From the sequence record MN342150: a stretch of 64,000 nucleotides of DNA, one strand, 5' to 3'. How positions within the stretch are numbered: the first letter of the stretch is position 1; each line of letters begins with the position of its first letter. This document shows, in pieces, positions 7,528 to 56,896 of this stretch. The position numbers and the translations under genes were made by a program. The notes under the pieces were generated by a model. That model did no database searches and was not told the origin of the DNA. It saw nothing but the letters and a program-made list of their open reading frames with translations. Source of the DNA: Escherichia phage vB_EcoM_3HA11.

Positions 7528-10500
7528 ATGCAATCTACAAATTTAAACCGTCGCCCGTATTGGGATGACTGGAATCCTGGGAAACGTTTTTCACGGATTC
7601 TTTTTCGTCCGATGCCTATCAAGGTTCAGACTCGCGAACTGAACCAGATGCAGACTATTCTTCAGGATCAAATTGAAAAACTGGGCAACCATCTGTTCAA
7701 AGATGGTTCTATGGTTATCCCTGGCGGTCTGACGATCACCAATGCCGCAGTCTCTTTGAAATTCACTTTGGCGGGTGGTACTGAATTCACCGATCTGGAA
7801 GGTATTTCTGAACTCTACGTTTTGGGGAAAGACAATAACGCCAAAGCGCGTGTGTTGTCTCTTGAACGTGATCTGTCTGCTCCTGATACGATGTTGGCCA
7901 TCCTTGAGATGACTGAAGCGGGTAATGCTGACGGATTCCATGTTAACGATAATCTGTATTTCCAGACTTACGACGTGAATGATAATTTCATTCGTATTGG
8001 TTATGGGATCGCGGCTGCTGTAACTGGTTCTATCGTTGCTCGTATGACGAAAGGCGTTTACTTCATTCGTGGAATGTTTCTAGACGTTGATGACGCGACT
8101 CTCATCGTCGATAAAACTTCAAACACTTCTTCCCACCGTGTCGGATTTAAAGTCACTGAAACCATCGTGACTGAATCTGAAGACGAATCCCTTTATTCAA
8201 ATGCTCAGGGAACGATTAACTCCAAAGCCCCAGGCGCTCATCGTCTTCGAATAGATCTGGTTTTGTCTCGATTTGATTATGATGCTGTGGTTGAAGACTT
8301 TGTTGAACTGGCCAAAGTTCGTGATGGTAAAATCCAGTCTATGGTGACTCAGTCCACCTATAATATTCTGGAAGACACGTTGGCTCAACGGACGTATGAA
8401 ACCAACGGCGATTACAACGTTTCAACGCATCAGATCGACATCCGCGAACACCTGAAAGTCAATAACAATGGTGGTGTATTCAATGCTGCTGATGGCGGCG
8501 ACGAAAGTAAATTCGTGTCTGTAATGAAACCAGGTATTTCCTATGTTCGCGGTCGTCGTATCGAAAACGTCGGGGAAGAGTTGGTGATCGTTGACAAGGC
8601 ACGGGATACCGATGTCCTGAATAACACGCCTGTTGCAGTCGCTACAGGGAATTATCTGGTCACCAAGAACTCCAAAGGTGTTCCAGTAATATCTCGCACT
8701 GTGCGATACAAGTTATTGAACGCGTCCGGCGCTGCTCAAGCCACGGCGTTGTGTATATCCGCTGAACGCAATTCAACTGAATTCCGTCTGTACATGCGTG
8801 ATTTGGTTGTGACTGGGGACGCGTCCACTATCACCAAAGTATCTTATGAAGAAAGTGGTATCACCATGTTCTCTGCTGAACTGGAATCCAACCAGTTTAA
8901 CCAGAGTTCTATGGTAGACCTGATCTTCTCTCTTCCGGTCTTCGGTGTTAAAACATTAGCGCCAACAGGTTCCGTGGATATCAACTACACCGTTCTCCGA
9001 ACTTACAAAGTCACTCTGGACAATAGCGGTTCTGGTTCTATTTCAGCCCCACTGGGATATAGTTTCTCTCCTGAATTTTCGTTGTATTCTTCTGCGAAAT
9101 CCGATGGTTCAGAAGCGCAATTTGATATCTCTGGCTCTTTGTCACTGACTGGTTCTCCGGTGGGATCGGCTTTGCAGATTTCCCTGGGTAGCGGTAATGC
9201 TAACCAGTCAATCAATTTGCTGGCACTGATGATCCGCACTACGGCCACGATCAAAACGAAGACGATAACTGAAACCACAGAGTCTGTGACTTTTACTTCC
9301 CAAACCAGTAGACCTCTGGCAAATCACGATGGCTGGAAATTGGTATCTGTCAAAAATGATACCGGCGCGGACGTGACTTCGAGCTTCACCCTCGACGGTG
9401 GTCAACGCGATGCGGGATATTACAAGGCTAATCTGTTATCCACCGCTGGAGCCATTTCAGGGACGTATACGGTGGTGTATCAATACTTCGCGCATAGTTC
9501 GGGAGATTTCTTCTCAGCGGATTCGTATACTTCGATGGATTATAAAGATATCCCGAATTATACATCTTCTACATCAGGCGCGGTGTACGGCCTGGCAGAT
9601 AGTTTAGATTTCCGTCCGAAAATCACCAACGGAACTTCTGACACAGATATGGTTCGTCCAAACACTGCAGTTATTCTGGACACAGAATATTATCTGCCGC
9701 GTATCGACGCGATTTATCTGGCAGACAACGGTGTGTTTGGTGTGGCTCGAGGCATCAGTTCTAATAATCTGGCTTCTCCAGCAATCCCAGCGAACGCCAT
9801 GCGTTTGTATGAATTGTTGATCCCGCCGTATACACCGAATATTGATGATATCCAAATTCGAACTATTGATAATCGTCGTTATACAATGCGCGATATCGGT
9901 AAACTGGAAACCCGTATTTCCAATGTTGAATACTATACCTCTCTGTCACAGCTGGAATCTTCAGCGATGACACAGCAAGTGTTTGACCCCATCACGGGTA
10001 ATCCTCGTTTCAAAAATGGTATTGCAGCTGATCCGTTCAAAGACTTCCGGTTGATTGATGACTTGTCTGAAGATTGGATGGGTTCTATCGATACCGAAAA
10101 CGGACGTCTACGCCCGTTTGTACAACAGAACGTTGTTGACATGACTCCGGTTGGCTGGAACAAAGTGATGGATGGGATGGTGGTTTGTAATTACACACCT
10201 GAAATCTCAGTGAACCAAGAATATGCGACGACGACGATCAACGTTAACCCGTATGCAGTATTCAATTGGGAAGGTTTCTTGAAGATTAACCCGACCACAG
10301 ACTACTGGTTCGAAAACTATTATGTTGCCCCGCGTATTATTAATGAAACGATCAACACCCGTGGTACTGTACAAGAAGGTTCAGTGTACGGAACATGGCG
10401 GACTGTTTCTGTTTCTGATCGTGTTTGGGAGCCGCATGGTGCTGGTGGTGTGTGGTGGGGATATCGTTACCGCACGACTGTTTCTGCCCGTGATGTCACC

Positions 10501-18302: not shown

Positions 18303-20198
18303 ATGGCAACTCAAAGCTTCAGCGTTGCGCCGTCCGTACAGTGGACTGAGCGTGATGCCACGCTTCAGACTTCTCCGTCCGTGGTTGTTCAGGGCGCGAC
18401 AGTCGGCAAATTTCAATGGGGTGAAGTCGAACTCCCAGTGCTGGTGACTGGTGGTGAGACGGGTTTGGTGAAGAAATTCTTCAAACCTAATGACAGCACT
18501 GCGACAGATTTCCTTGTGATTGCAGACTTTTTGTCTTACAGCTCTATGGCATGGGTCACTCGTGTTGTTGGTCCTCTGGCCAAGAACTCTGTCACCAAAG
18601 GCCAGACAGCCATCACGATCAAAAACAAGCTGGATTTTGAAACAGCAAGTCCGTCAGCGTCTATCACTTGGGCTGGTCGTTATCCAGGATCTCTGGGGAA
18701 TGACATCGCCATCAATGTTTGTGACTCCGCTGGATTCCCGACATGGGAATTCCGTAACAACTTTGCGTACGCACCTCAGTCTGGTGAATTCCATGTTGTG
18801 GTTGTAGACAAAGTTGGGCGCATTACTGACTCTGCTGGTGCGGTTGGTCAGGTTGACCGTATCTCTGTTTCTGGCACGGCAACCGCAGCTGGCACCATCA
18901 GTGTGGCGGGTGAAGATATCGCATATCTGGATACTGATACTCCGGCCACTTTGGCGACCAAAATTGGCGCGGCGCTGACGGCGCTGACAGATGTTTATTC
19001 TTCTGTCGTTGTTAAGTCTAACACTGTCATCGTGACCCATAAAGCCATTGGTCCCCAGACAGTTACTGCTATTGTTCCAGATGATAAGGGGCTGACTGCA
19101 ACCGCCGTGATTACCACTGTTGGCGCATCTGGTTCTATTATCGAAAAATACGAACTCATGCAGAACACACAGGGTTCCAAAAAGTCCGATGGCGCGAATG
19201 CGTACTTCAAAGATGTCATCAATGATACATCAAATTGGGTGTACACCTTCGCCACCGCTCTGGCCGCAGGTGTTGTTGAATTAGAAGGCGGCGTAGACGA
19301 CTACAATATCAACCGTGTCGCGGCTATCCAAGTTCTGAACAACGCCGAAGCATATGATGCGAAGCCAGTATTTGCATACTGTGAAGAGTTGATTGAACAA
19401 CAGGCATTAATCGACTTGTCTACCGAGCGAAAAGACACCGTTTCCTTCGTGTCGCCTTTGCGTGATACTGTGGTCGGCAACCGTGGCCGTGAGATGGACG
19501 ATGTGGTCGCTTGGCGTGAAAGTCTGGTGCGCGACTCCTCCTATTTCTTCATGGACGACAACTGGGCATACGTGTACGATAAATACAACGATAAGATGCG
19601 CTGGATCCCTGCTTGCGGCGGTACAGCGGGTGTTTGGGCACGTAGTATTGAAATCGCGGGTATCTACAAATCTCCTGCGTTCCACAACCGTGGCAAATAC
19701 AACAACTACAATCGAATGGCGTGGTCTGCGTCTTCCGATGAACGTGCCGTGTTGTACCGCAACCAGATTAACAGCATCGTGACCTTCTCCAATGAAGGTA
19801 TCGTGTTGTATGGTGACAAAACTGGCCTGACTCGTCCGTCTGCTTTCGATCGTATCAATGTTCGCGGTCTGTTTATTATGGCAGAACAGAACATCGCTGC
19901 AATCGCCAAATATTACCTTGGTGAGAACAATGATGCGTTCACTCGCAGCCTGTTCAGCAACGCTGTTCGTCCTTATATTCGCCAACTGGCAAATATGGGT
20001 GCGATCTACGATGGTAAAGTCAAGTGTGACGAAGATAACAACACTGCTGATGTTATCGCAGCCAACACCATGGTTGCAGGCATTTGGTTGAAGCCTGAGT
20101 ACAGCATTAATTGGGTATATTTGGATTTTGCTGCAGTTCGACCAGATATGGAATTCTCCGAGATCGAATCAGGCGGCGGCATCGTTGCTGCATCCTAA
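18303..20198 (+). CDS. Tail sheath protein (gp18-like)
   Basis: 631 aa from ATG after GAGAAGGA; position between terminase and tail tube; size close to T4 gp18. Confidence 0.75.
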   Translation: MATQSFSVAPSVQWTERDATLQTSPSVVVQGATVGKFQWGEVELPVLVTGGETGLVKKFFKPNDSTATDFLVIADFLSYSSMAWVTRVVGPLAKNSVTKGQTAITIKNKLDFETASPSASITWAGRYPGSLGNDIAINVCDSAGFPTWEFRNNFAYAPQSGEFHVVVVDKVGRITDSAGAVGQVDRISVSGTATAAGTISVAGEDIAYLDTDTPATLATKIGAALTALTDVYSSVVVKSNTVIVTHKAIGPQTVTAIVPDDKGLTATAVITTVGASGSIIEKYELMQNTQGSKKSDGANAYFKDVINDTSNWVYTFATALAAGVVELEGGVDDYNINRVAAIQVLNNAEAYDAKPVFAYCEELIEQQALIDLSTERKDTVSFVSPLRDTVVGNRGREMDDVVAWRESLVRDSSYFFMDDNWAYVYDKYNDKMRWIPACGGTAGVWARSIEIAGIYKSPAFHNRGKYNNYNRMAWSASSDERAVLYRNQINSIVTFSNEGIVLYGDKTGLTRPSAFDRINVRGLFIMAEQNIAAIAKYYLGENNDAFTRSLFSNAVRPYIRQLANMGAIYDGKVKCDEDNNTADVIAANTMVAGIWLKPEYSINWVYLDFAAVRPDMEFSEIESGGGIVAAS

Positions 20199-20206
20199 GA
20201 CAACAA

Positions 20207-20230
20207 CCCCGCTTCGGCGGGGTTTTTATT
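20207..20230. terminator. Rho-independent terminator (ccccgc-ttcg-gcgggg + tttttatttcc)
   Basis: Perfect 6-bp GC stem with T-tract; between convergent sheath gene and - strand endonuclease gene. Confidence 0.7.
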
Positions 20231-21014
20231 TCCTACTGATATGCCATCCTGTGGTATTTGTTCTCTTCAATGAAGATTTCCTGTAAGGTTTAGGGATGGG
20301 ATTCTGCATCCTTCCAGCTAATGCCATGTTGAAAGATTCTATACACAAACATTGTTCTTGACAAAATTTGTTTAGATTCTTGATTTCATATTCTTCACCA
20401 GCTGGTGAAAGAAGTGTAAACCATCTCCCGAGAGATCGATTTATTTTCTCTTGAAATTCAGGATTCATACGCACTTTGTTCATAGCGATACGAAGATTTT
20501 CTTTACATTTTGGATTCTCGTATGCCTTTGTAATTCGCCGGGATTGCAATTCTTTCTTTTCTTCTGTCCACACGACCGCTTGGGATTGGGACATTTTTGT
20601 TTTACTTTCTTCTTTATGTACTAAACCGTATTGTTTTGCCACAAACAAAACATTCCAACCAGCATCATTAACTGGTTTCATTCCGATGAATTCCCTGCTT
20701 TCTATATCATATGCTGCGGCCATACCAGATATGTCTATCTGACCGCCACGGCTGATATTCAGCCCACCTTCAGAGATATGAGTCTTATGCAATTTTATGA
20801 GTTCAATTTCGTTAGAGTTTAGGTCATCGACATGGCATTCCAGCAATATTTCTTGGCTGGTAATTCCATACTTTCGGATATAGTTGTAGAGGATAGTTTT
20901 ATTCCCTCTTCTTGCTTCACCCAAATGTTCATTTACTCGATACTCAACGCCGTTTCTAGTTTGTCCGATATACTTCTTTTTACCGACGGTTAACATGTAG
21001 ATATGACCGATCAT
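20226..21014 (-). CDS. GIY-YIG homing endonuclease
   Basis: N-terminus MIGHIYMLTVGKKKYIGQT..RVNEH matches GIY-YIG motif; start at ATG preceded by GGAGGTG on the - strand. Confidence 0.75.
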   Translation of the reverse strand: MIGHIYMLTVGKKKYIGQTRNGVEYRVNEHLGEARRGNKTILYNYIRKYGITSQEILLECHVDDLNSNEIELIKLHKTHISEGGLNISRGGQIDISGMAAAYDIESREFIGMKPVNDAGWNVLFVAKQYGLVHKEESKTKMSQSQAVVWTEEKKELQSRRITKAYENPKCKENLRIAMNKVRMNPEFQEKINRSLGRWFTLLSPAGEEYEIKNLNKFCQEQCLCIESFNMALAGRMQNPIPKPYRKSSLKRTNTTGWHISRK

Positions 21015-30124: not shown

Positions 30125-30547
30125 ATGAAGAAGTATATCGTTCTTATAACGGGTTCCCGTTCTATAACTGAGCGGGACAAAATATTTGCCAAATTAGATG
30201 AACTCTTAATCCCTCACGAGATAGAGACGTTTATTGAAGGTGAAGCAGTGGGTGTGGATCTGATATCCCGTGATTGGTGTGAAATCAATTATGTGCATAT
30301 CACACCAATGCCGATTCCTCAAAATTACCATACGTTATATGGGAAAGGTGCGGGCAATCAACGTAACAAAGATATGCTGGACAAGGCTCTAACATTGGCG
30401 AAGCAAAAAGATCTTGAGGTCTTTGGAATTGCATTATGGGATGGTTCGTCTACTGGGACGCAAGACATGATCAAGCGCATGAAGAAAGCGGGAATAAATG
30501 TCAATATCACTCTCATGGGCAAACCCAAAACCAAACGATTGTTATAA
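30125..30547 (+). CDS. SLOG/DUF2493-like Rossmann-fold protein (tentative)
   Basis: N-terminal KKYIVLITGSRSI and later GEAVGVD resemble the GSR..GxD signature of LOG/DprA-like SLOG domains. Confidence 0.3.
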   Translation: MKKYIVLITGSRSITERDKIFAKLDELLIPHEIETFIEGEAVGVDLISRDWCEINYVHITPMPIPQNYHTLYGKGAGNQRNKDMLDKALTLAKQKDLEVFGIALWDGSSTGTQDMIKRMKKAGINVNITLMGKPKTKRLL

Positions 30548-30577
30548 ATAAATTTGCCACCCATGAGGAGTTATACC

Positions 30578-30748
30578 ATGTTACAAATACTGTTGGTGCT
30601 TTGTGTCGCATTTACCATGTACTTCATGGCACGCATCGGTTTTATTACTTTAGATGACATGAAGGGTATCCCACGTGAACCCAAATTCATCTTTCTGAAG
30701 AAGTTTGCCAAAAAGTTCTCAGAAAACTTTATTTATCATCTACCATGA
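30578..30748 (+). CDS. Small membrane protein
   Basis: Start after GAGGAG; hydrophobic helix LQILLVLCVAFTMYFMARIGFI. Confidence 0.3.
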   Translation: MLQILLVLCVAFTMYFMARIGFITLDDMKGIPREPKFIFLKKFAKKFSENFIYHLP

Positions 30749-30773
30749 TTAAATACCCCCAAAATTGGGGGTA
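30749..30773 (+). promoter_or_regulatory. Late-promoter-like box TTAAATAC with downstream hairpin taccccc-aaaatt-gggggta
   Basis: Same promoter-plus-leader-hairpin architecture as upstream of the tailspike genes; ATG at 30779. Confidence 0.35.
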
Positions 30774-30778
30774 TTTTT

Positions 30779-31507
30779 ATGAACGCACAAATCTATGATG
30801 TCCTTTCCTCGGGCAATGCATTTAGCAATCCGCTTCCATCCCTCTCCGGTCCTTCTCAGGATTTAATAACCAGTGGCATCACCAATATACCATTGATAAC
30901 TGCCAACGCTACTCCGGAGATGCAGGCGGCTATGGCAGCTGGTGGACTAACACCAGAAAAACTCACAGCAGCCAGCACCATGTATAGCACCGCCAACACA
31001 GGGATAACAACTCTGAACACATATGGCGACCAAAGTATCAATGACGCGTATTCTCGCATCGGTACTTCCGTGTCATACAAATCAGGTCTAAAGGGTATAT
31101 CACGAGAGCCAAACAATTGTGATTTGATCAACAAGGCTTTTGGCGTTGTTCAGGATTTAGGACGCCAATGGCTGAATGCTATGGAAGGCGCTCTACAGAC
31201 CGTAACAAACAAGATATCGGAATTGTATGAGATGATCATGGAAGGTGCCTCAGAAGGAATGGCAAAGCTGCAAGAATTGGCTGCAGAAGTAACGGGACAC
31301 ATCAATACTGCGATAACCGCAGTCAACGGGGTTATAAGTGATATTACAGATGGTATAGCCGCAGAACTTGCTCACATTGAAAGTATGATCAAAGAGTGCT
31401 TGAATTTCTCTTTTGCTAACGTGCTCGGGGAATGGGCTAAAGATCTGTGCGCCGGAGGTGTTATTGACAAAATAGGGACTCCAGCATTAAAAGAATCCCT
31501 GAAATAA
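30779..31507 (+). CDS. Hypothetical protein (Ala/Thr/Gly-rich)
   Basis: 242-aa ORF; no motif recognised. Confidence 0.4.
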   Translation: MNAQIYDVLSSGNAFSNPLPSLSGPSQDLITSGITNIPLITANATPEMQAAMAAGGLTPEKLTAASTMYSTANTGITTLNTYGDQSINDAYSRIGTSVSYKSGLKGISREPNNCDLINKAFGVVQDLGRQWLNAMEGALQTVTNKISELYEMIMEGASEGMAKLQELAAEVTGHINTAITAVNGVISDITDGIAAELAHIESMIKECLNFSFANVLGEWAKDLCAGGVIDKIGTPALKESLK

Positions 31508-31508
31508 A

Positions 31509-32129
31509 TCAATGACGAGCAGGGAGGACTCCCACTGGTTCGATGCCTTCGATCATCAGGGAGTCCACTCCAACATCGCTCAGGCGAATCCAAACCTTAC
31601 CCCCTGGCCTTATCTCATATATGTTCATCTCGTTTCCAACAGCAGACCCATTCACAAAAACGCCTTGAGTAGCAATCCGAATAGGCGTTTTGGTGTTGTT
31701 GATTATCTGAAAAGATATCGTGATATCCCTTGTCAATTCCACATTTCTTGCTGTTGTATATCTCCTCAATTTTTCAAAGAAAGATGGATTGAATGTGGCT
31801 ATGATGCTGTTGTTTTGTGAGTAGTAAATACTGGCAGACAGATAAGGGATTTTTCCCTCATCACCTTTCCTCAATAGAGGGATCGTGGTTTTCCAGTACG
31901 GTCTCAACGCCTGGTTGTTATCATCAAAACAACCGACGGCTTGTATGGTTTGGAAATTCTGGAAGTCTACCACAACTTGATCCAGTAACTTTTTATTACA
32001 TTTGTCGACATCAGCAGAAATATTGACTGGTATAGTTCTGATTTCAGGATCCCAAAGATCGGTGACAGAAATCACGGACGTGACAAAGATACGGCAGCTT
32101 GTAAGTACAAGCACCATTATCATCGTCAT
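31509..32129 (-). CDS. Putative lipoprotein on the opposite strand
   Basis: Minus-strand ORF spanning a region where the + strand has only three short abutting ORFs; start placed at MTMIMVLVLTSC, giving a signal peptide with lipobox-like LTSC. Confidence 0.45.
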   Translation of the reverse strand: MTMIMVLVLTSCRIFVTSVISVTDLWDPEIRTIPVNISADVDKCNKKLLDQVVVDFQNFQTIQAVGCFDDNNQALRPYWKTTIPLLRKGDEGKIPYLSASIYYSQNNSIIATFNPSFFEKLRRYTTARNVELTRDITISFQIINNTKTPIRIATQGVFVNGSAVGNEMNIYEIRPGGKVWIRLSDVGVDSLMIEGIEPVGVLPARH

Positions 32130-32192
32130 GATCCATTTTCTGAATCCGCGTATCAGGAACACTAAAACGTTCTCCACAGCAAAGGTGCTAAC

Positions 32193-32690
32193 ATGACAGG
32201 TGTACAATTCAAAAACGAAAATCCTAATTTCGCGGCTTCCGATAAATGGCGCTTAACCATCGGAGACCTGGTGCTGCTAACCCGTTCGATACATGACTTC
32301 AGTATCCCTGGCGTGTATTCCGAAGGTATCGAAGGCCCATCCCCTGGCGATGTCCTAAACTCTATACCTTCAGAACGTCTCACGTATGACCCCATCGTAT
32401 TTACGTTCGTTATCGATGAGAGTTGGTACAACTGGGAACAGATTTACAATTGGATCGCTTCGAACGCGGGTTCAGATTTAGCCGTCAGTAGAGATATTAC
32501 GATTGAACTTTTAGACAACATGAACCGTCCTGTTGGGCTTCAGTTGCTTCTAGAAGAAGGGCGACCAACAGCGCTAGACAACGTGTTGGTTGACGTGGAT
32601 GCATCGGTTCCTCAGTTGGTCACAACGGTGACATTCAAATATCTGAAACTGACTCCGACCCGCGTAACCCGCGAAATTGATAAACAATAA
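32193..32690 (+). CDS. Hypothetical protein
   Basis: 165-aa ORF. Confidence 0.4.
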   Translation: MTGVQFKNENPNFAASDKWRLTIGDLVLLTRSIHDFSIPGVYSEGIEGPSPGDVLNSIPSERLTYDPIVFTFVIDESWYNWEQIYNWIASNAGSDLAVSRDITIELLDNMNRPVGLQLLLEEGRPTALDNVLVDVDASVPQLVTTVTFKYLKLTPTRVTREIDKQ

Positions 32691-32728
32691 GTTATAATAC
32701 AGAGAGTTGAAACAGCAGGAAATAAATC

Positions 32729-33184
32729 ATGAGTGAAACAAAATTTGAAACAATGAAGACCGAAGATATAATCGCGGAATTAGATCCTCTTATTTCGGTG
32801 AATCCTGAAGACATGAATTTAGACCAAATATCATTGAAAATTGGTCGTTCATGGATGGCTGTCCAGCGCCATTACATTCGTGAAGGGCGTTATCTAGAAT
32901 TTTTGACAGGAAAATTCCGTCAAATCGATCTTTATTTACGTCGGTATTATGCAGGGGAATTACCACCCAATATTTATGTCGAACGTCCCCTGAAAGTTCG
33001 CCCCCTGAAATCTGATATAGACGTTTGGGTAAAGGCTGATGACGATTACATTGAGTTATCGAGCATGTTGCAAGAACAAAAAGCCAAAGTAAAATTAATC
33101 GAAAGTAGTTTAGAACGTTTGAATAAACTCGGCTATGAAGTGAAAAATGCGATTGATTGGCGAAAATATTTGGACGGTATGTGA
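32729..33184 (+). CDS. uvsY: Recombination mediator, UvsY-like (tentative)
   Basis: 151 aa; segments YLRRYYAGE and LGYEVKNAIDWRKY resemble recalled T4 UvsY (RLDYYSG ... SRGFAIKHIQDMRAF); lies next to uvsW as in T4. Confidence 0.4.
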   Translation: MSETKFETMKTEDIIAELDPLISVNPEDMNLDQISLKIGRSWMAVQRHYIREGRYLEFLTGKFRQIDLYLRRYYAGELPPNIYVERPLKVRPLKSDIDVWVKADDDYIELSSMLQEQKAKVKLIESSLERLNKLGYEVKNAIDWRKYLDGM

Positions 33185-33930
33185 TGGTTTCCCTGCAGGC
33201 TTTGCGTAAACTCAATGATTTTGAGAACCGCCATTACACATTTCAGCAGTATGCCTTGCCCTTTAAGGAACTGACTTGTGTAACAACGGAAAACGGTCGC
33301 CATTATGTGTCTCCAACAGGCGTCAAACTCACATCTGTAACAACGATGTTGGGGCGTACCGGAGATCATACATGGTTAGAAGCCTGGCGGGACAAGTTGG
33401 GACACGAAGCCGCCGATATCGAAACAGAGCGTTGCGCAGACCGTGGGGAAAAACTTCATTTGGCCTGTGAATTATATCTCAAAAACAGGCCGATGAAGGA
33501 AGTGTTAGAAGCCGCAGGGGAATACGTGTTTATGTTTAAACAGGTCTTCCCCTACCTGAACAAAATGAGCAAGATATACGCACAGGAGATTCCGTTATAT
33601 AGCGAAGTCCTTGGTCTTGCTGGTCGTGTTGATCTCATCGGCGTTTACGAGGGAATCCCTAGCATTATCGATTTCAAAACATCCAACACCCTGAAAACTC
33701 GGAGCATGATAGAAGATTACAGCATTCAACTATGCCTGTACTCAGTCATGTTTCAACAGATGTTTAATGTTAAGATCGAACGTTTGGTCAATATTATATC
33801 TAACGAAAATTCTCTTGTCCCGACTATAATCGAATTTAATCGAAAAGACGTTATTTCTAAAATGTTTGATCGTGTTCGCCTGTATCATAAAATGGATAAA
33901 GAACAGAACGGGATCTGGGCGGATCGCTAA
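33184..33930 (+). CDS. PD-(D/E)XK superfamily nuclease
   Basis: Motif RVDLIGVY..(8 aa)..IIDFKTS fits the D..(D/E)XK catalytic core (YqaJ/RecB-like); TGATG start/stop overlap with upstream gene. Confidence 0.5.
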   Translation: MVSLQALRKLNDFENRHYTFQQYALPFKELTCVTTENGRHYVSPTGVKLTSVTTMLGRTGDHTWLEAWRDKLGHEAADIETERCADRGEKLHLACELYLKNRPMKEVLEAAGEYVFMFKQVFPYLNKMSKIYAQEIPLYSEVLGLAGRVDLIGVYEGIPSIIDFKTSNTLKTRSMIEDYSIQLCLYSVMFQQMFNVKIERLVNIISNENSLVPTIIEFNRKDVISKMFDRVRLYHKMDKEQNGIWADR

Positions 33931-35465: not shown

Positions 35466-35810
35466 TCATTTGTCTTGGTTCACATAGGCGGGGGTCGCCT
35501 CGCCTTCTTTGTCAGAACCGAATAAACAACCCATCGTGCTGATGCATTGTTGTAGAACTTCTGGATCCAGAATCTGGCACAACAGTTGTTCATTACATTC
35601 CAGCAATGGGACAACTTTCACTTCCCGCGCCTGTCCTTGTTGAATAATGCCGACATATAGACCTTTGGTGTCTGGCAGTAACGGGATCACCATCATTGGT
35701 GTCACAACAAACTTAGAAGTGCAATAGAGGCTGTGTAAGTAAACACCTTTCAATGCCGGACATGCTTCTTGTTCTTCCCCTACTGCATATAAACCCACGA
35801 ATTGTTTCAT
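35466..35810 (-). CDS. Hypothetical Cys-rich protein
   Basis: 114-aa ORF convergent with uvsW with no terminator between; may be spurious. Confidence 0.3.
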   Translation of the reverse strand: MKQFVGLYAVGEEQEACPALKGVYLHSLYCTSKFVVTPMMVIPLLPDTKGLYVGIIQQGQAREVKVVPLLECNEQLLCQILDPEVLQQCISTMGCLFGSDKEGEATPAYVNQDK

Positions 35811-36145
35811 ATATTACTCTCTTGTTAGTAAACATGACTACATAATAATTTCATGCTGTGTTTAGACCAAATAAATTATTTTGCTAGTTGAATAAAAATC
35901 GCTTTCTTGTTGAACAAACCGTGCGTAATATACGAGTTGTGAGCTTTGCGAGCAACGAGTATTATCACGAGCGAAGCGAGTAGACTAATAAAGAAAGGTT
36001 TATTAAAACAGAATACTATAAATGCCGTCAGGCATTTATTTATCGCGCGTAGGGCATTTTAACACTTGTTCTATAACTGCAAACACGCGATACTAATTTG
36101 CGTCAAACATGACTTGAACCCCACTATATTTTGAGGATATAAACA
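35811..36145. promoter_or_regulatory. 335-bp AT-rich non-coding control region upstream of the sliding clamp gene
   Basis: Contains TATAAAT box near 36016, hairpin aaatgcc-gtca-ggcattt (36021..36037) and several CGAG-containing repeats (tacgag, gcgag, aacgag, cacgag, gcgaagcgag). Confidence 0.4.
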
Positions 36146-43147: not shown

Positions 43148-43519
43148 ATGTTTGATCAAGCAACCCGTTTAAAACTGCGTTTCAACTCTAACAAAGGTCT
43201 GCTGTCTGTTGAGCAGGTTTGGGATCTGAACCTGAATGCCCTAAACGAACTGGCGAAAGACCTCAGCCGTCAGGTGAAGGAAGCCGCCAGCGATGAAGAA
43301 GATTTCATCGGCGTGAAAAGCGCAGTCGACTCTCAGTTACAACTGCGTTTCGATATCGTGAAAGCGATCATCGGTGTTAAACTGAAAGAACGTGACGAAA
43401 GCGCAACCGCCGCCGAACGTAAAGCGAATAACCAGGCGATCATGGAACTGATCCAGCGTAAGAAACAGCAGGAACTGGAAGGCCTCTCTGTTGAAGAACT
43501 GGAAAAACTCCTGAAATAA
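43148..43519 (+). CDS. Hypothetical coiled-coil protein
   Basis: 123 aa, charged helical repeats. Confidence 0.35.
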   Translation: MFDQATRLKLRFNSNKGLLSVEQVWDLNLNALNELAKDLSRQVKEAASDEEDFIGVKSAVDSQLQLRFDIVKAIIGVKLKERDESATAAERKANNQAIMELIQRKKQQELEGLSVEELEKLLK

Positions 43520-43578
43520 TCTGTCGGCTCCGGCCTGAGCAACCCCGCTATGTGCGGGGTTTCTTTTGGAGAAATATT

Positions 43579-43815
43579 ATGAAACAAATTACTAAGACAG
43601 TACAAATCACCCAATATCAAACGGATGACGGCAGAGTGTTCGATACTCTTGGTCAGGCCGAACATTATGAGAAGATGAAGTCCGGTATTCGCAAGGTATG
43701 CTCTTCTTGTGATGGCAAAGGTCGCGACTCTCCGTCGGGCGACGGGCGTGATATGACGACTTGTCATTATTGTGGTGGTAAAGGCTGGGTAGAAAAGAAA
43801 GAGATATGGGGTTAA
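43579..43815 (+). CDS. Small zinc-finger protein (CxxC..CxxC)
   Basis: CSSCDGKG ... CHYCGGKGW motifs. Confidence 0.4.
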   Translation: MKQITKTVQITQYQTDDGRVFDTLGQAEHYEKMKSGIRKVCSSCDGKGRDSPSGDGRDMTTCHYCGGKGWVEKKEIWG

Positions 43816-49276: not shown

Positions 49277-49966
49277 ATGAAACGTTTAATCCTCGGGGTT
49301 GTGCTGGCAGGTCTGGCATTACCCGCCACCGCCAAGCTGAACTCCACAGGTGACAAACTGTGGTCTGATCTTTCCTACTGTGCTGGGTTCTCCCAGGCGG
49401 TCGCTATCGACAAGTCCGGTTCCATAGAGAATTTCGCTGAACTTTGGAACACGGGTAACGTCTCCACTGCTGTTGTTAATGCTGGGATTGAGTTCAACCG
49501 TTACAAACAGGGAGCCTACAACTTGAAAGGCTACCTGAATGACGATGAATTTAACCGAGGAGGCATGGAGGCTGGCGATCTCATCATGACTGGCCGTATG
49601 GGCACACAAGGCCGTATGACTGTAAGGCAATGCCGTTCTCTCCCCTCTCCGGCATTACAGAAGGGTGTGCAAATCGGGCGTCGACATTTGGATCTGATCA
49701 ATGATGGCAACCAATGCATCAAGGTGTTTGAATATAGTGCCGACCAAGAATCAGATCGACGTTTGAAAAAGGAATGGCGGACACGTGCCCTTGGATTGAG
49801 AGCATGGCTCGTAGAAAATGATTATTACTATGAGGATCGTGTTCAGAACGGATTGAAAGATCTTTCCACTAATTTGTCTGTCAATCTAGACGACCCAAGG
49901 CTTTCGCGTGAACTCAAGCAAACACGGATTGACTGCGACAATATGATGAAGGAGAACGAAAGATGA
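49277..49966 (+). CDS. Secreted protein with N-terminal signal peptide
   Basis: MKRLILGVVLAGLALPATA signal-like N-terminus after GGAGAA. Confidence 0.45.
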   Translation: MKRLILGVVLAGLALPATAKLNSTGDKLWSDLSYCAGFSQAVAIDKSGSIENFAELWNTGNVSTAVVNAGIEFNRYKQGAYNLKGYLNDDEFNRGGMEAGDLIMTGRMGTQGRMTVRQCRSLPSPALQKGVQIGRRHLDLINDGNQCIKVFEYSADQESDRRLKKEWRTRALGLRAWLVENDYYYEDRVQNGLKDLSTNLSVNLDDPRLSRELKQTRIDCDNMMKENER

Positions 49967-50283
49967 GAAACATAATATTCTTGTTATTCTTTTCTATGTT
50001 GGCATCATTCCAAGTTATGGCAACTCCGGCTAGCAAATTGAATATCTGTGCGGCCTGGTTGTCTACTTATCAACAATTTCACCCTGATGATAAAGATACA
50101 TCCATCCTTTTATCAGATTATGAAGGTGAGTTGAAACGCCTTGATCTCTACAGCGTGGATCAAATAGAGAATGCTTTGGATTTGCCAATGATGGAGTCCG
50201 CTGCCGACAATAGCAAACAGACGATCAAAGATCTGACTATGTGTCGGGAAATAGCGACTAATTTCGTTGGAAATCAAAGATAA
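49963..50283 (+). CDS. Small secreted protein
   Basis: MRNIIFLLFFSMLASFQVMA signal-like N-terminus; start/stop overlap. Confidence 0.4.
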   Translation: MRNIIFLLFFSMLASFQVMATPASKLNICAAWLSTYQQFHPDDKDTSILLSDYEGELKRLDLYSVDQIENALDLPMMESAADNSKQTIKDLTMCREIATNFVGNQR

Positions 50284-52926: not shown

Positions 52927-53132
52927 ACGGATTAATTCGTTACCTGTTCATATTCGTAATTTCAACATTCATTTTATTTTTCTTTTTCAAATACTTGAAA
53001 GAGACTAAAATCTACCGAAGTAAACGTTGGCGCAAACGGGTGAGGGTAACTTTCCTGCTGCTGATTTCTTCGGTTACAATAACCGCACTCACATTGGGTG
53101 CATATATCTACATTTTTGAAGGGGTACATTGA
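52923..53132 (+). CDS. Small two-helix membrane protein (holin-like topology)
   Basis: Two hydrophobic segments (LFIFVISTFILFFFF, LLLISSVTITALTLGAYIYIF) separated by basic loop. Confidence 0.4.
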   Translation: MNGLIRYLFIFVISTFILFFFFKYLKETKIYRSKRWRKRVRVTFLLLISSVTITALTLGAYIYIFEGVH

Positions 53133-53923
53133 TGTTCAAGAAATTGGTGTTCGGTGCAATTATGGTTCTGGCTGCAAGTCTACTTTCTGGTTGTGGTGGC
53201 GTTATCGATGAAGGTAATGTCGGCGTTCGCACCCAATGGGGTGAAGTAGACATGAACCCTGTAACAGCGGGGATCTACACCAGCTTTGTTTCAAGCGTGG
53301 ATGTTTACACGACCAAAGAAGCCGTTGTGAGTCTGACTAAAATGACGCCAAAGGCCAAAGACAACCTGACTCTGGAAGACTTGGATGTGGATGTTTATTA
53401 CACACCCAATGTCGCAAAGGTTCCGTGGTTCCATACCAAATTTGCTGGCCAGAGCGCTGAACTCGATGATGGCACGATAGCGGTGGGTTTCAATCTAGTT
53501 AAAACTGCTGCAGCATCTTCTTCGATGGACGCCGTTTCTTCTCTTGATTCTATGACAATTCACACCCAACGTGCTGAATTAGAGAAGATGATTAAAGACC
53601 GCACTCAGCAACAATTAGAGACTGCTGCGCCTGGCATGTTCACAATCACACGCGTGTTGGTCAAAAAGGCGCTGACGGATCCTTCTATTGAGCAGTCTAT
53701 CCGTGATAATGTTATGGCGGACAAACGATTGGATACGGCAAGAAAGAACGTTGAAATTCGCGAGCAAGAAGCCCAAGCGAACCAGAAACTGACCACTTCG
53801 CTGACGCCTGAATATCTTCAACATGAATATAACATGGTATTACAATCATGTGCCAATAGTGGAAAATGTACTCTGATCGTTGACGGATCCGGCTCAGGTA
53901 AAATGCTGAACGTCGGCAAATAA
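53129..53923 (+). CDS. SPFH (band-7/prohibitin-like) domain lipoprotein
   Basis: Signal peptide with lipobox LLSGC; central region resembles HflK/C-stomatin band-7 domains. Confidence 0.45.
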   Translation: MMFKKLVFGAIMVLAASLLSGCGGVIDEGNVGVRTQWGEVDMNPVTAGIYTSFVSSVDVYTTKEAVVSLTKMTPKAKDNLTLEDLDVDVYYTPNVAKVPWFHTKFAGQSAELDDGTIAVGFNLVKTAAASSSMDAVSSLDSMTIHTQRAELEKMIKDRTQQQLETAAPGMFTITRVLVKKALTDPSIEQSIRDNVMADKRLDTARKNVEIREQEAQANQKLTTSLTPEYLQHEYNMVLQSCANSGKCTLIVDGSGSGKMLNVGK

Positions 53924-54410: not shown

Positions 54411-56132
54411 GTGACAGCATTTAATCAATACCGAAAGGCAATTGACGCCATAGGCCGTAAGGTTCCTATAGAAGAAATACAAAGCCTTGCCAAAAACGAA
54501 TTTCCATATGACAAGGCGAACCAAGGCCAGATGGAATGTATCGTCGAAGCCGTTGATGCCTTGGTCAACAAAAAGGTCAAACACGTGATCATTGAAGCCC
54601 CAACTGGCGTGGGGAAATCTTTGATCGGGACAACAATTCATAAAGTGATTCGCCATTTGGTTTTACAGGCCGATCCTTATGGGCAATTCCGCACGTCTAT
54701 CAGTACGCCCACCAAAGGTCTACAAGATCAGTATGCTGCTGAAAAGGCGGTGGCGATAGACATCCTGAAAGGCAAGAAGAACTATCGTTGCCACGTACAC
54801 CCAGATGTGTATTACAACGCCGTGCAATGCCGTATAGCATGCCGTGACGGGCATTGTAGCAAACGCCGTTGTCCTTATGTACAGGCGCGCAATTTATGGA
54901 CTGATATTTCGTCATTGCGTTGCACTAATGCAGCTATGATGATTGAGATGTGCACCACCATCTGTATGAAGCCTGAAAACCGTTCCGATATGCTGATCTT
55001 AGACGAGTGTCATAAGATGCCCTCTACGCTCCTAGAGCACACGATAATGGAATACAATACAAAGGCTGTGGATGGGCTGCGAACTATCCCCGAAGGGAAG
55101 GAGATAGTCTCTATCATTGCCGATATCGTAGAACGCACCAAGGACTATGTCTTGGGCAAGTTGTATTCCTTGTCCGGTGAAATGCATTCGATGTTTGAAG
55201 ACCTCCATCTTAAAGTGGAGTCTTTGTTGGAAGTTCTTGAAGAATTGGTTGAAGATGACCGCCTGAGTGAAAGCCAGGTGATGAAACTCGCCGACATTAT
55301 CGATGTACTACACAATCTGAGTGATTATTGTGGTATTATGTCTCAGACAAAGGCCAGCACCTTTATCGTACAGGAAAAGGGAGATGACTTTATTCGGTTT
55401 AAACCCGTCATGCCTTCTGATGTAAGTGAATTTGGATTGTTCAGGAAAGCCGATTACCATGTTCATATGTCGGCAACAATCTGCGGAATCGATTCATATG
55501 CCCGTTCCTTGGGTATCCGCCAGGGGGATTATCATTCAATACAGATTGGAAATCCAATCCCAATTGAAAATCGGAAAGTCAACTATATGCCCATCGTTAA
55601 GATGACCAACAACATGGGCGATTATGAAATGAAAAGGCTGACGGAATACATTGATGAAATAATCGCATTCCATCCAGGGCAATCTGGCATCATACATACA
55701 GTGAGCTATGATCGCGCATTAGCAATACAAAAATTCAGCAAATACCAGAACTTTATCCATGTGCCACGCACTCGAAAGGCGTTGATGGATATTATGGAAA
55801 ATGCCTTCAGGACAAAAACACCTTGTGTTATTGCCAGTCCGGCCATGGAAGAAGGATATGACTTCAAAGGTGATTACAGCCGATTCCAAATACTGATCAA
55901 AGTTCCTTATGATTATTTGGGCGATCCATTGATCGCACATATCAATTCAGTGGATCCGTCTGCGTACTTCCGCAACGCAGTATTGCGCATTGTTCAGATG
56001 TGCGGACGTTCGGTCAGGGGTGTGGATGACTGGGCTGCAACATACATAATCGATTCTTCCTTTGAATCTCTTATGATGCGCAACCCAGAGTTCTTCCCAA
56101 CCTGGTTCACCGATGCAGTATTTGAAGTTTAA
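54411..56132 (+). CDS. DinG/Rad3-family (XPD-like) helicase
   Basis: Walker A EAPTGVGKS, DEAH-like LILDECHK, four-Cys insertion (C-x14-C-x3-C-x5-C) typical of the Fe-S domain of DinG/XPD helicases. Confidence 0.7.
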   Translation: MTAFNQYRKAIDAIGRKVPIEEIQSLAKNEFPYDKANQGQMECIVEAVDALVNKKVKHVIIEAPTGVGKSLIGTTIHKVIRHLVLQADPYGQFRTSISTPTKGLQDQYAAEKAVAIDILKGKKNYRCHVHPDVYYNAVQCRIACRDGHCSKRRCPYVQARNLWTDISSLRCTNAAMMIEMCTTICMKPENRSDMLILDECHKMPSTLLEHTIMEYNTKAVDGLRTIPEGKEIVSIIADIVERTKDYVLGKLYSLSGEMHSMFEDLHLKVESLLEVLEELVEDDRLSESQVMKLADIIDVLHNLSDYCGIMSQTKASTFIVQEKGDDFIRFKPVMPSDVSEFGLFRKADYHVHMSATICGIDSYARSLGIRQGDYHSIQIGNPIPIENRKVNYMPIVKMTNNMGDYEMKRLTEYIDEIIAFHPGQSGIIHTVSYDRALAIQKFSKYQNFIHVPRTRKALMDIMENAFRTKTPCVIASPAMEEGYDFKGDYSRFQILIKVPYDYLGDPLIAHINSVDPSAYFRNAVLRIVQMCGRSVRGVDDWAATYIIDSSFESLMMRNPEFFPTWFTDAVFEV

Positions 56133-56896
56133 TAACCTGCAATAAACGATAAATGGCACTTGATATTTGGTTCAAGTGTCGTTATCGTGATGATCATATT
56201 ATCCACATCTTGGCTGAAAGATATATTTGCGATCGGTTTGGTCTGAACGTGGTTGTACAGGCTGTATATCAAATCTTCACCACGGTATCCGACTTTACCA
56301 TCAGTATCCTGCCAATGGCCTAACGTGGATTCATGAGCATGTACTCGGAATTCTATCATATGGAACAATGCTTTTGGGATTGTTTTCAGTATGCTGGTTC
56401 CGACAACAGGGATATCAATAGAAGAGTCGTTGGAGTTTCCTTCATAAACTGACGCCCAACCAAATGTTGGATCTCCTCCCGCTACTGGAGTTCTCTTCCA
56501 ATATTGGAATTCCGGATTTCCAGCAGCATTCTTTTGTAGAAGGATAACTTCACCGCCTTCAAAATTAGAAGTGTCTATATCATCACGTGCTAATAAATCA
56601 GCTGGAGAACCAATAAATTTCCAGGTTTCGCGATCTAAAATAGACTTATAATAATCGGTGAATACGTTGCTGTCGTTAGCTGCATTGATTGCGTCTTTAA
56701 GACCTTCACCTGTGACCATCTCATTGAGTTTTAGCCACATGTTTTTGACAGCTGACGCAGCTGCGACCTGACCTTCAGTCCCACCCGCCGTGTAGTCATA
56801 TACGATGTCCAGCTTTTGGATGGAGTCGTTTATGGACAAGAGCAAACGCTCAATTTCTGGGGCGGTCAGACTGAAACGATATGCGCGTTCTGACAT
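56129..56896 (-). CDS. Hypothetical protein on the opposite strand
   Basis: 255-aa ORF, the only clear - strand gene in this block; divergent from the RNase H gene. Confidence 0.45.
   Translation of the reverse strand: MSERAYRFSLTAPEIERLLLSINDSIQKLDIVYDYTAGGTEGQVAAASAVKNMWLKLNEMVTGEGLKDAINAANDSNVFTDYYKSILDRETWKFIGSPADLLARDDIDTSNFEGGEVILLQKNAAGNPEFQYWKRTPVAGGDPTFGWASVYEGNSNDSSIDIPVVGTSILKTIPKALFHMIEFRVHAHESTLGHWQDTDGKVGYRGEDLIYSLYNHVQTKPIANISFSQDVDNMIITITTLEPNIKCHLSFIAGY

Follow-up and report, generated by a model that had tools for sequence, protein, structure and literature searches.

A stretch of 64,000 nt from Escherichia phage vB_EcoM_3HA11 (sequence record MN342150; hereafter the window) contains a stop-free frame on the minus strand (31509..32207) amid genes encoded on the plus strand. 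This arrangement raises the questions of whether the frame represents a gene, what its product might do in the infected cell, and whether it is a moron, as was proposed in an earlier note on this DNA. Over region 30500..33500 the window shares 99.5% identity with Escherichia phage ECML-4 and 99.4% with Salmonella phage Vi01, two members of the genus Kuttervirus (family Ackermannviridae), which identifies the window as a Kuttervirus genome of the Vi01/ECML-4 type. The RefSeq annotation of ECML-4 places the major head protein gene upstream of several small genes, a YspA-like gene, a 56-aa ORF and the DUF7217 gene, followed by the minus-strand gene PI33_gp158 and subsequently by gp3, UvsY, a PD-(D/E)XK exonuclease and a UvsW-like helicase. 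PI33_gp158, annotated as 'hypothetical protein', has the same boundaries as the DUF7424 coding sequence described here (Table 1), and it is the sole minus-strand gene between DUF7217 and gp3, in agreement with the opposite-strand location given in the earlier note. Inverted single genes are common in this phage genome, with the tail tube gene PI33_gp024 and the lone inverted genes of Table 1 as examples, and the orientation of the lipoprotein gene alone therefore says little.

Table 1. Positions of the lipoprotein gene, its neighbours and signals, and lone inverted genes in the window
Feature	Position	Strand	Remarks
GIY-YIG homing endonuclease	20226..21014		Lone inverted gene
DUF7217 gene	30779..31507	+	Convergent neighbour of the lipoprotein gene
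Terminator-like hairpin and AUUUUGU	31467..31500	-	From RNA fold; inside the 3' end of the DUF7217 gene
DUF7424 prolipoprotein coding sequence	31509..32162	-	217 aa; GTG start; TGA stop at 31509..31511
Three short ORFs antisense to the lipoprotein gene	31512..31820, 31817..32026, 32002..32196	+	Antisense by-products
Mature DUF7424 domain (residues 26-216)	31515..32087	-	From Pfam match and AlphaFold2 model
Predicted signal peptide (residues 1-22) and Cys23	32094..32162	-	From lipobox rule and hydrophobicity
Gap between divergent start codons	32163..32192		30 nt; both ribosome-binding sites within
Shine-Dalgarno GGAG	32172..32175	-	9 nt upstream of GTG 32162; read from sequence
Tail-completion gene gp3	32193..32690	+	Back-to-back with the lipoprotein gene
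PHROG 4255 gene	35466..35810		Lone inverted gene
PHROG 3833 gene	56129..56896		Lone inverted gene

A minus-strand gene for a predicted lipoprotein

The minus-strand DUF7424 ORF is a real coding gene. The frame extends over 232 aa when read from a TTG at 32207 and over 207 aa when read from an ATG at 32129, and its product matches the Pfam family DUF7424 (PF24199) over model positions 2-195 of 196 (E 5e-59, 199.8 bits, with a gathering cut-off of 27 bits), as well as PHROG 3832 (phrog_3832, E 3.5e-111). Comparison with phage S117, which has 90% protein identity, showed 116 nucleotide differences, of which 20, 3 and 93 were at codon positions 1, 2 and 3, respectively, corresponding to 80 synonymous and 21 non-synonymous codon changes, and the codon-position bias of substitutions was also present in comparisons with Klebsiella phage Magnus and Dickeya phage XF4. 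Using the phage's own codon usage as model, the codon log-likelihood of the ORF was +0.071 per codon, which is below every one of 45 reference genes (0.262 ± 0.104, minimum 0.099). The three ORFs that overlap it on the plus strand gave values of -0.09, -0.35 and -0.13, so that the comparison of codon usage on both strands yielded a positive score for the minus-strand ORF and negative scores for all three plus-strand ORFs. The longest of the three (102 aa) is broken in S117, none of them is annotated in any record examined, and they are spurious antisense artefacts. The Pfam and PHROG matches, the 20/3/93 substitution pattern and the positive codon score together bear out the earlier reading of the minus-strand ORF as a gene.

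As a discovery the gene ranks low, as it is already present in public annotation and a Pfam entry exists. The window protein is 98.6% identical to the proteins of ECML-4 and Guerrero, and the label 'putative (conserved) lipoprotein' is used in the Salmonella phages Marshall, Guerrero, maane and pertopsoe. DUF7424 has no assigned function or solved structure, and our literature search turned up no mention of DUF7424, while the PADLOC and NCBIfam libraries gave no credible match for the lipoprotein gene.

The most likely start codon is the GTG at 32162, which gives a product of 217 aa, rather than the ATG at 32129 or the TTG at 32207. Both RefSeq ECML-4 and Sajous1 begin at this GTG, the start in S117 differs by just two codons, and the Pfam and PHROG alignments start around residue 19-26 of the 232-aa frame. 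The GGAG Shine-Dalgarno sequence upstream of the GTG is kept in S117, Magnus and XF4, and phages of different genera share an N-terminus of the form M-x-L-[IM]-R-G-x-x-R with a hydrophobic run after it. The ATG was rejected as start codon, with just 11 residues before the Cys and no charged region. The open frame of 207-232 aa given in the earlier note was found as described, with its start corrected to GTG 32162.

Translated from GTG 32162, the product begins with MFLIRGFRKWIMTMIMVLVLTS followed by CR, with cleavage predicted before the Cys. The signal peptide combines the charged residues R5, R8 and K9 with a hydrophobic core (WIMTMIMVLVL), and ends in the lipobox L20-T21-S22-C23 (32094..32105, minus strand), with Arg as residue +2. 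The window protein conforms to a strict PROSITE-type rule (PS51257-type; [LVI][ASTVI][GAS]-C, with the Cys between residues 15 and 35), as do 123 of the 145 full-length members of the family, and the failures mostly represent truncated gene calls or one off-pattern residue. The signal is also the sole hydrophobic segment of the protein, with a Kyte-Doolittle value of 2.16 for the top window (residues 15-33) compared to ≤1.13 in the mature part. The LTSC lipobox and signal peptide noticed earlier are thereby confirmed by rule, and the Cys is invariant in 47/47 aligned sequences. This is a textbook signal, which predicts that the gene encodes an exported lipoprotein subject to lipidation and cleavage by signal peptidase II. 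An Asp at position +2 keeps a lipoprotein from being sorted to the outer membrane by the Lol system. The enterobacterial phages have Arg at this position, and the two Vibrio phages read have Lys or Arg; with Arg instead of Asp in the window protein, sorting to the outer membrane by Lol is the most likely prediction.

An exhaustive profile search identified 83 representative relatives at E ≤ 0.001, nearly all of them 185-235 aa in length and matched over most of that length. An alignment of 47 sequences (A2), which all match DUF7424 and share 15-57% identity with the window protein, has just two columns without variation, that of the lipobox Cys and that of Asn155 in an N-[DN]-T motif; Ser195 in an L-S-D-V motif is nearly invariant. 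The AlphaFold2 model, which is confident (pLDDT 90.9, pTM 0.84), divides the mature domain into an N-terminal alpha/beta half, containing Cys55 and Cys78, and a C-terminal beta-sandwich half, containing the N-[DN]-T and L-S-D-V motifs, and the GIEPVGVLPA motif at the C-terminus is strongly conserved. Both Cys55 and Cys78 are present in 41/47 sequences and are jointly lost in at least one (P0061), a co-conservation which probably reflects a disulfide formed in the oxidising periplasm. A comparison of the predicted structure with solved and viral structures gave no informative match.

Transcription signals around the gene

The earlier note had placed a divergent promoter gap at 32130..32192. No such promoter gap exists: the start codons of the two divergent genes are separated by just 30 nt, and this stretch is occupied by their ribosome-binding sites, plus-strand AAAGGTG for gp3 and minus-strand GGAG for the lipoprotein gene, so that two promoters could not be accommodated. 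The corresponding distance is 28-32 nt in S117, Magnus and XF4, and ranges from 24 to 49 nt in Serratia phage 3M and two Vibrio phages. As judged from this layout, the promoter for the lipoprotein gene would have to lie inside the gp3 coding sequence or farther upstream. No sigma-70-like sites scoring ≥8/12 were detected within 260 nt upstream in a relaxed scan, which non-consensus promoters could escape, while consensus promoter scans gave hits at chance level only, and a promoter-like site conserved across four phages was not found.

We did find a motif, CTAAATA(cc), that is enriched in intergenic DNA and located 20-45 nt upstream of many plus-strand genes, with 11 copies on the plus strand and 1 on the minus strand. 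Because the phage encodes a late sigma factor, this motif is plausibly a late-promoter element. A variant, ATTAAATACC, is located at 30748, which is 31 nt ahead of the DUF7217 gene, and the minus strand upstream of the lipoprotein gene has no CTAAATA-type late motif. The T4 late motif TATAAATA has one copy in the window, away from the lipoprotein gene.

Downstream of the lipoprotein gene, a terminator-like hairpin with 9 pairs and a 9-nt loop (31474..31500) starts 9 nt past the stop codon, and is followed by AUUUUGU (31467..31473). The hairpin is weak (z = -0.75 for a 101-nt stretch); canonical terminators consisting of a hairpin and T-run are present at the equivalent place in Serratia phage 3M, Vibrio phages 1.244.A and BX-1 and Klebsiella phage Magnus, with the Magnus terminator being annotated and those in two Vibrio phages appearing bidirectional. 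The gene's own ribosome-binding site, the terminator-like hairpin and the convergent arrangement with DUF7217 agree with the separate opposite-strand unit proposed in the earlier note. On the plus strand the hairpin of the window lacks a T-run, and because of this and the late-type motif at 30748, late plus-strand transcription from 30748 would probably cross the lipoprotein gene in antisense direction toward gp3. A literature search found no transcriptome for Ackermannviridae.

Core gene in Ackermannviridae and cargo in prophages

Searches with tblastn detected the protein in 353 phage records, all of which appear to be Ackermannviridae-like save for one 'Enterococcus' record that is probably mislabelled. 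Neither the position of the gene nor its inverted orientation varies among Kuttervirus, Taipeivirus, Limestonevirus, Miltonvirus, Vapseptimavirus and unclassified Vibrio Ackermannviridae, and in the Vibrio phages its immediate neighbours are gp3 on one side and the major capsid gene (or one more gene) on the other. The numbers of records with the lipoprotein gene and with gp3 were 164 and 167 for Salmonella, 44 and 44 for Klebsiella, 19 and 19 for Dickeya, 10 and 10 for Serratia, and 69 and 73 for Vibrio. The GC content of the gene is 42.8% (phage genes 45.2 ± 3.2%), and its GC3 is 46.8% (phage genes 46.1 ± 5.8%). The description as a moron does not hold for this family, with the position fixed in every lineage sampled, record counts tracking those of gp3 almost 1:1 and normal GC; the DUF7424 gene is a fixed and essentially universal core gene in Ackermannviridae, and not a recently acquired moron.

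Among the enterobacterial phages the lipoprotein diverges at about the same pace as DUF7217, with 71% identity to Magnus and 63% to XF4. When compared to the Vibrio phages it is the most diverged protein of the block, with 24-25% identity versus 29-46% for gp3, UvsY, the exonuclease and the helicase. Such faster long-range divergence, with 25% identity versus 37-46% for neighbouring core proteins, would fit a host-facing role.

The gene contexts of distant members, taken from exact-protein look-ups, showed that DUF7424 lipoproteins outside Ackermannviridae are mostly phage cargo, with variable positions in E217/Pam3-like temperate myovirus prophages. In E. coli, DUF7424 is the last prophage gene, following the tail-fibre genes and next to the host acnA or uspF gene, whereas it is located between the tail-assembly chaperone and tape-measure genes in a Salmonella prophage, after the baseplate hub and among antirepressor-type cargo in a Pasteurella prophage, and between tape measure and Dit in a Haemophilus prophage. 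An E. coli prophage homologue is WP_235399307, from STEC384. A Cro/YdaS/Arc immunity region, an integrase island (with an ankyrin-repeat gene alongside) and a site adjoining a Mu-like prophage each contain a single member, and at least one more stands alone in a chromosome, without phage genes closer than 8 kb. These prophage contexts, in which DUF7424 is moron-like, resemble those of lysogenic-conversion or exclusion genes, and they provide the principal, albeit indirect, support for an envelope-directed protective function.

Proposed function and comparison with known systems

The guess of the earlier note, superinfection exclusion or host modulation, appears to be the most plausible functional class by analogy with other phage lipoproteins. 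We tentatively favour an outer-membrane lipoprotein acting on the envelope, with superinfection exclusion or protection of progeny as its most likely effect, while holding this specific reading with less than even confidence. The prolipoprotein would be made in the infected cell and exported via Sec, after which Lgt would lipidate Cys23, signal peptidase II would cleave and Lnt would N-acylate the product, and Lol would deliver it to the outer membrane, on the inner face. Its mature part of 194 residues is predicted to be soluble and to form a periplasmic domain with two lobes, probably held together by a disulfide between Cys55 and Cys78. By acting on the cell envelope it could keep later-arriving phages from completing entry, and it may also keep progeny from being wasted on cell debris; such an exclusion role would be analogous to that of T5 Llp or T1/phi80 Cor, with an unrelated fold. 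The lack of an adjacent receptor-binding gene in the window phage speaks against exclusion, as do the probable antisense transcription across the gene, the absence of a promoter in our scans and the family member that stands alone in a chromosome. Since the protein is conserved across Salmonella, Klebsiella, Dickeya and Vibrio phages, a host-specific receptor cannot be its target, and a conserved component of the envelope or of the phage would be required instead.

The same data also fit an envelope modifier that benefits the infecting phage's own cycle without excluding other phages, which we rank second and regard as possible but doubtful. Examples of such a function would be the modification of outer-membrane, LPS or capsule export or of vesiculation, the inhibition of a periplasmic host enzyme or of an envelope defence, or glycolipid binding. 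As a core gene that is highly conserved in phages of different hosts, DUF7424 points to an envelope target that is itself conserved, as would suit this alternative, and DUF7424 members are found in bacterial chromosomes and islands besides phages; however, no conserved partner gene was found, and the fold matches are at the noise level for 200-residue beta-rich proteins.

A third and improbable alternative to exclusion is a lysis accessory, which would contribute the outer-membrane disruption step as a functional stand-in for an o-spanin. A canonical spanin pair is not reliably found in Ackermannviridae, and the protein labelled 'Rz-like spanin' in RefSeq (window 49963..50283) lacks a lipoprotein partner and has an N-terminus that resembles a signal peptide. 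The DUF7424 protein is a predicted outer-membrane lipoprotein encoded by a core gene, and its conserved C-terminal GIEPVGVLPA could dock a partner. However, o-spanins are short and proline-rich, whereas the mature domain here is globular and beta-rich with 194 residues, and it lacks the C-terminal membrane anchor that would make it u-spanin-like. There is also no i-spanin-type gene adjacent or embedded, the gene is far from both annotated endolysins, and its homologues are isolated in tail modules, an immunity region or a lone chromosomal site, with none in lysis cassettes. Furthermore, the genome has at least two further predicted lipoproteins (window 53132..53923 and ECML-4 PI33_gp098). A bolder version, in which DUF7424 would supply the missing outer-membrane lysis step as a new spanin-independent disruptor or lysis regulator, with the prophage copies exapted or of dual use, is to our mind less probable still.

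We also mapped the 'Rz-like spanin / i-spanin' labels of a published table (PMC10892097) to window 43148..43815, and rejected this assignment as neither ORF matched a spanin family. Both ORFs belong to PHROG families of unassigned function, and Pfam gave no match for the first and only a sub-threshold zinc ribbon (DnaJ central domain, Anti-TRAP) for the second; the order of that spanin table is evidently not positional.

A virion or assembly component is very improbable: although the gene is flanked by those of the virion proteins DUF7217 and gp3 and its prophage homologues lie inside tail modules, the export and lipidation signal is family-wide and a periplasmic lipoprotein cannot join cytoplasmic assembly, the record of Dickeya phage XF4 calls the DUF7217 homologue structural and the lipoprotein gene hypothetical, and mass spectrometry of purified Sajous1 virions (PMC10892097) detected gp166 (DUF7217) and gp168 (gp3) with 8 spectra each, without detecting gp167, the product of the lipoprotein gene, which argues against a structural role. 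The ferritin or 'ferrojan horse' operon of Sajous1 (gp214-217; PMC10892097) was considered and set aside, as it does not include gp167.

As a sequence feature the DUF7424 gene is ordinary, and it is the comparative picture that merits keeping: a single family of exported lipoproteins that is core in virulent Ackermannviridae and movable cargo in temperate myovirus prophages, which makes it a clean, testable candidate. Phages of this family find wide use in the biocontrol of Salmonella, E. coli O157, Klebsiella and Dickeya. If the lipoprotein does block superinfection, Kuttervirus members combined in one cocktail could exclude each other, which matters for cocktail design, and DUF7424 would add a new structural class of exclusion proteins.

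Among known phage envelope proteins, the spanins (Rz1-type o-spanins and T1 gp11-type u-spanins) share with the DUF7424 lipoprotein an outer-membrane lipoprotein signal and an origin in phages of Gram-negative hosts, but the DUF7424 protein differs from them by its large globular domain and by the absence of an i-spanin partner, a C-terminal transmembrane segment and a lysis cassette. The resemblance to the lambda morons bor and lom consists of a single envelope-protein gene inserted between conserved genes, with a terminator-like element at its 3' end, and extends to the prophage members, which vary in position in otherwise syntenic E217/Pam3-like tail modules. In Ackermannviridae, unlike morons, the gene is fixed and syntenic, has a normal GC content and lacks a recognisable promoter of its own.

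The outer-membrane lipoproteins Llp of phage T5 and Cor of phages T1, phi80, HK022 and N15 block the phage's own receptor, FhuA. The DUF7424 lipoprotein has no sequence or fold similarity to either, its mature part is about three times larger than that of Llp (194 versus about 60 residues), and its gene in Ackermannviridae is not adjacent to receptor-binding genes. It is also conserved across phages with different hosts and receptors, unlike Llp and Cor, and a receptor-specific block is unlikely for a protein that such phages have in common. The likenesses are that the window gene, as Llp and Cor, encodes a phage lipoprotein predicted for the outer membrane, that it is carried by a virulent phage, as is T5 Llp (cited in PMC9409062), and that its homologue in the E. 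coli prophage is located directly after the tail-fibre genes, as is cor.

Further predicted lipoproteins and the annotated 'Rz-like spanin' gene

Two lipoproteins besides the DUF7424 protein were predicted in the phage genome. The 263-aa protein, with an LLSGC lipobox, is probably the 'SPFH/band 7 family lipoprotein' detected in virions of phage Sajous1 (PMC10892097), and the 114-aa PI33_gp098, with an FSTTAC lipobox, is encoded next to the DNA polymerase gene in the near-identical phage ECML-4. According to two genome announcements, a spanin complex could not be identified in Vi01-like phages. The products of the annotated 'Rz-like spanin' gene and of the gene preceding it both have N-termini resembling cleavable signal peptides, with a lipobox absent from both proteins and an embedded lipoprotein ORF absent from both genes.

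Coordinates of features in the window and, where indicated, in ECML-4
Feature	Position	Strand	Remark
DUF7217 gene	30779..31507	+	upstream neighbour of lipoprotein gene
CTAAATA(cc) motif	57, 2267, 7488, 14004, 18254, 21056, 23862, 25080, 33927, 63275	+	
CTAAATA(cc) variant	30748		
GIY-YIG homing endonuclease gene	20226..21014	-	alone inside plus-strand block
PHROG 4255 gene	35466..35810	-	alone inside plus-strand block
PHROG 3833 gene	56129..56896	-	alone inside plus-strand block
AT-rich non-coding gap, 335 nt	35811..36145		upstream of minus-strand gene 35466..35810
Predicted lipoprotein, 263 aa	53132..53923	+	LLSGC lipobox
Predicted lipoprotein PI33_gp098, 114 aa	ECML-4 65808..66152	-	FSTTAC lipobox
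Gene preceding 'Rz-like spanin' gene	49277..49966	+	
'Rz-like spanin' gene	49963..50283	+	RefSeq ECML-4 PI33_gp133

DUF7217 and DUF7424 in other records

The DUF7217 protein is present in the Sajous1 virion proteome (PMC10892097) and is weakly matched by PHROG families of tape-measure and baseplate-hub proteins. PHROG 289 fuses its gene with the YspA-like 'GTP-binding domain' gene. The DUF7424 gene is annotated only as a 102-aa C-terminal fragment in the records of Serratia phage vB_SmaA_3M and of phiMAM1. The ORF is intact, however, and encodes a signal peptide and a lipobox within ~221 aa (3977..4642 in the vB_SmaA_3M locus, L003). A Kuttervirus-type copy with 89% protein identity was located at 18563..19213 of GenBank OR844942.1 ('Enterococcus phage Efm 3-10'), which is labelled as an Enterococcus faecium phage; this record is probably mislabelled or contaminated. 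A CRISPR spacer of E. coli N3 (NZ_CP031609.1 2049184..2049216) was identical over 33/33 nt to a prophage DUF7424 gene (9239..9271 of locus L015), belonging to an E217/Pam3-like prophage of other E. coli strains.

A plus-strand motif and lone minus-strand genes

Within the window, CTAAATA(cc) occurs in 11 copies on the plus strand versus one on the minus strand, is enriched in intergenic DNA and precedes many plus-strand start codons by 20-45 nt. It is this placement that is striking rather than the raw count of the 7-mer (12 versus 7.3 expected), which by itself is not significant, and the motif is a candidate late promoter for the phage's own late sigma factor.

Three other genes stand alone on the minus strand, and the PHROG 4255 protein carries the label 'clamp loader subunit' in phage Guerrero. 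Several sites in the gap upstream of the PHROG 4255 gene resemble promoters, and the gap also includes a 9-bp hairpin (36018..36039). The PHROG 4255 and PHROG 3833 genes each converge on the gene upstream and have their 3′ ends within a few bases of its stop codon, an arrangement which the DUF7424 lipoprotein gene shares.
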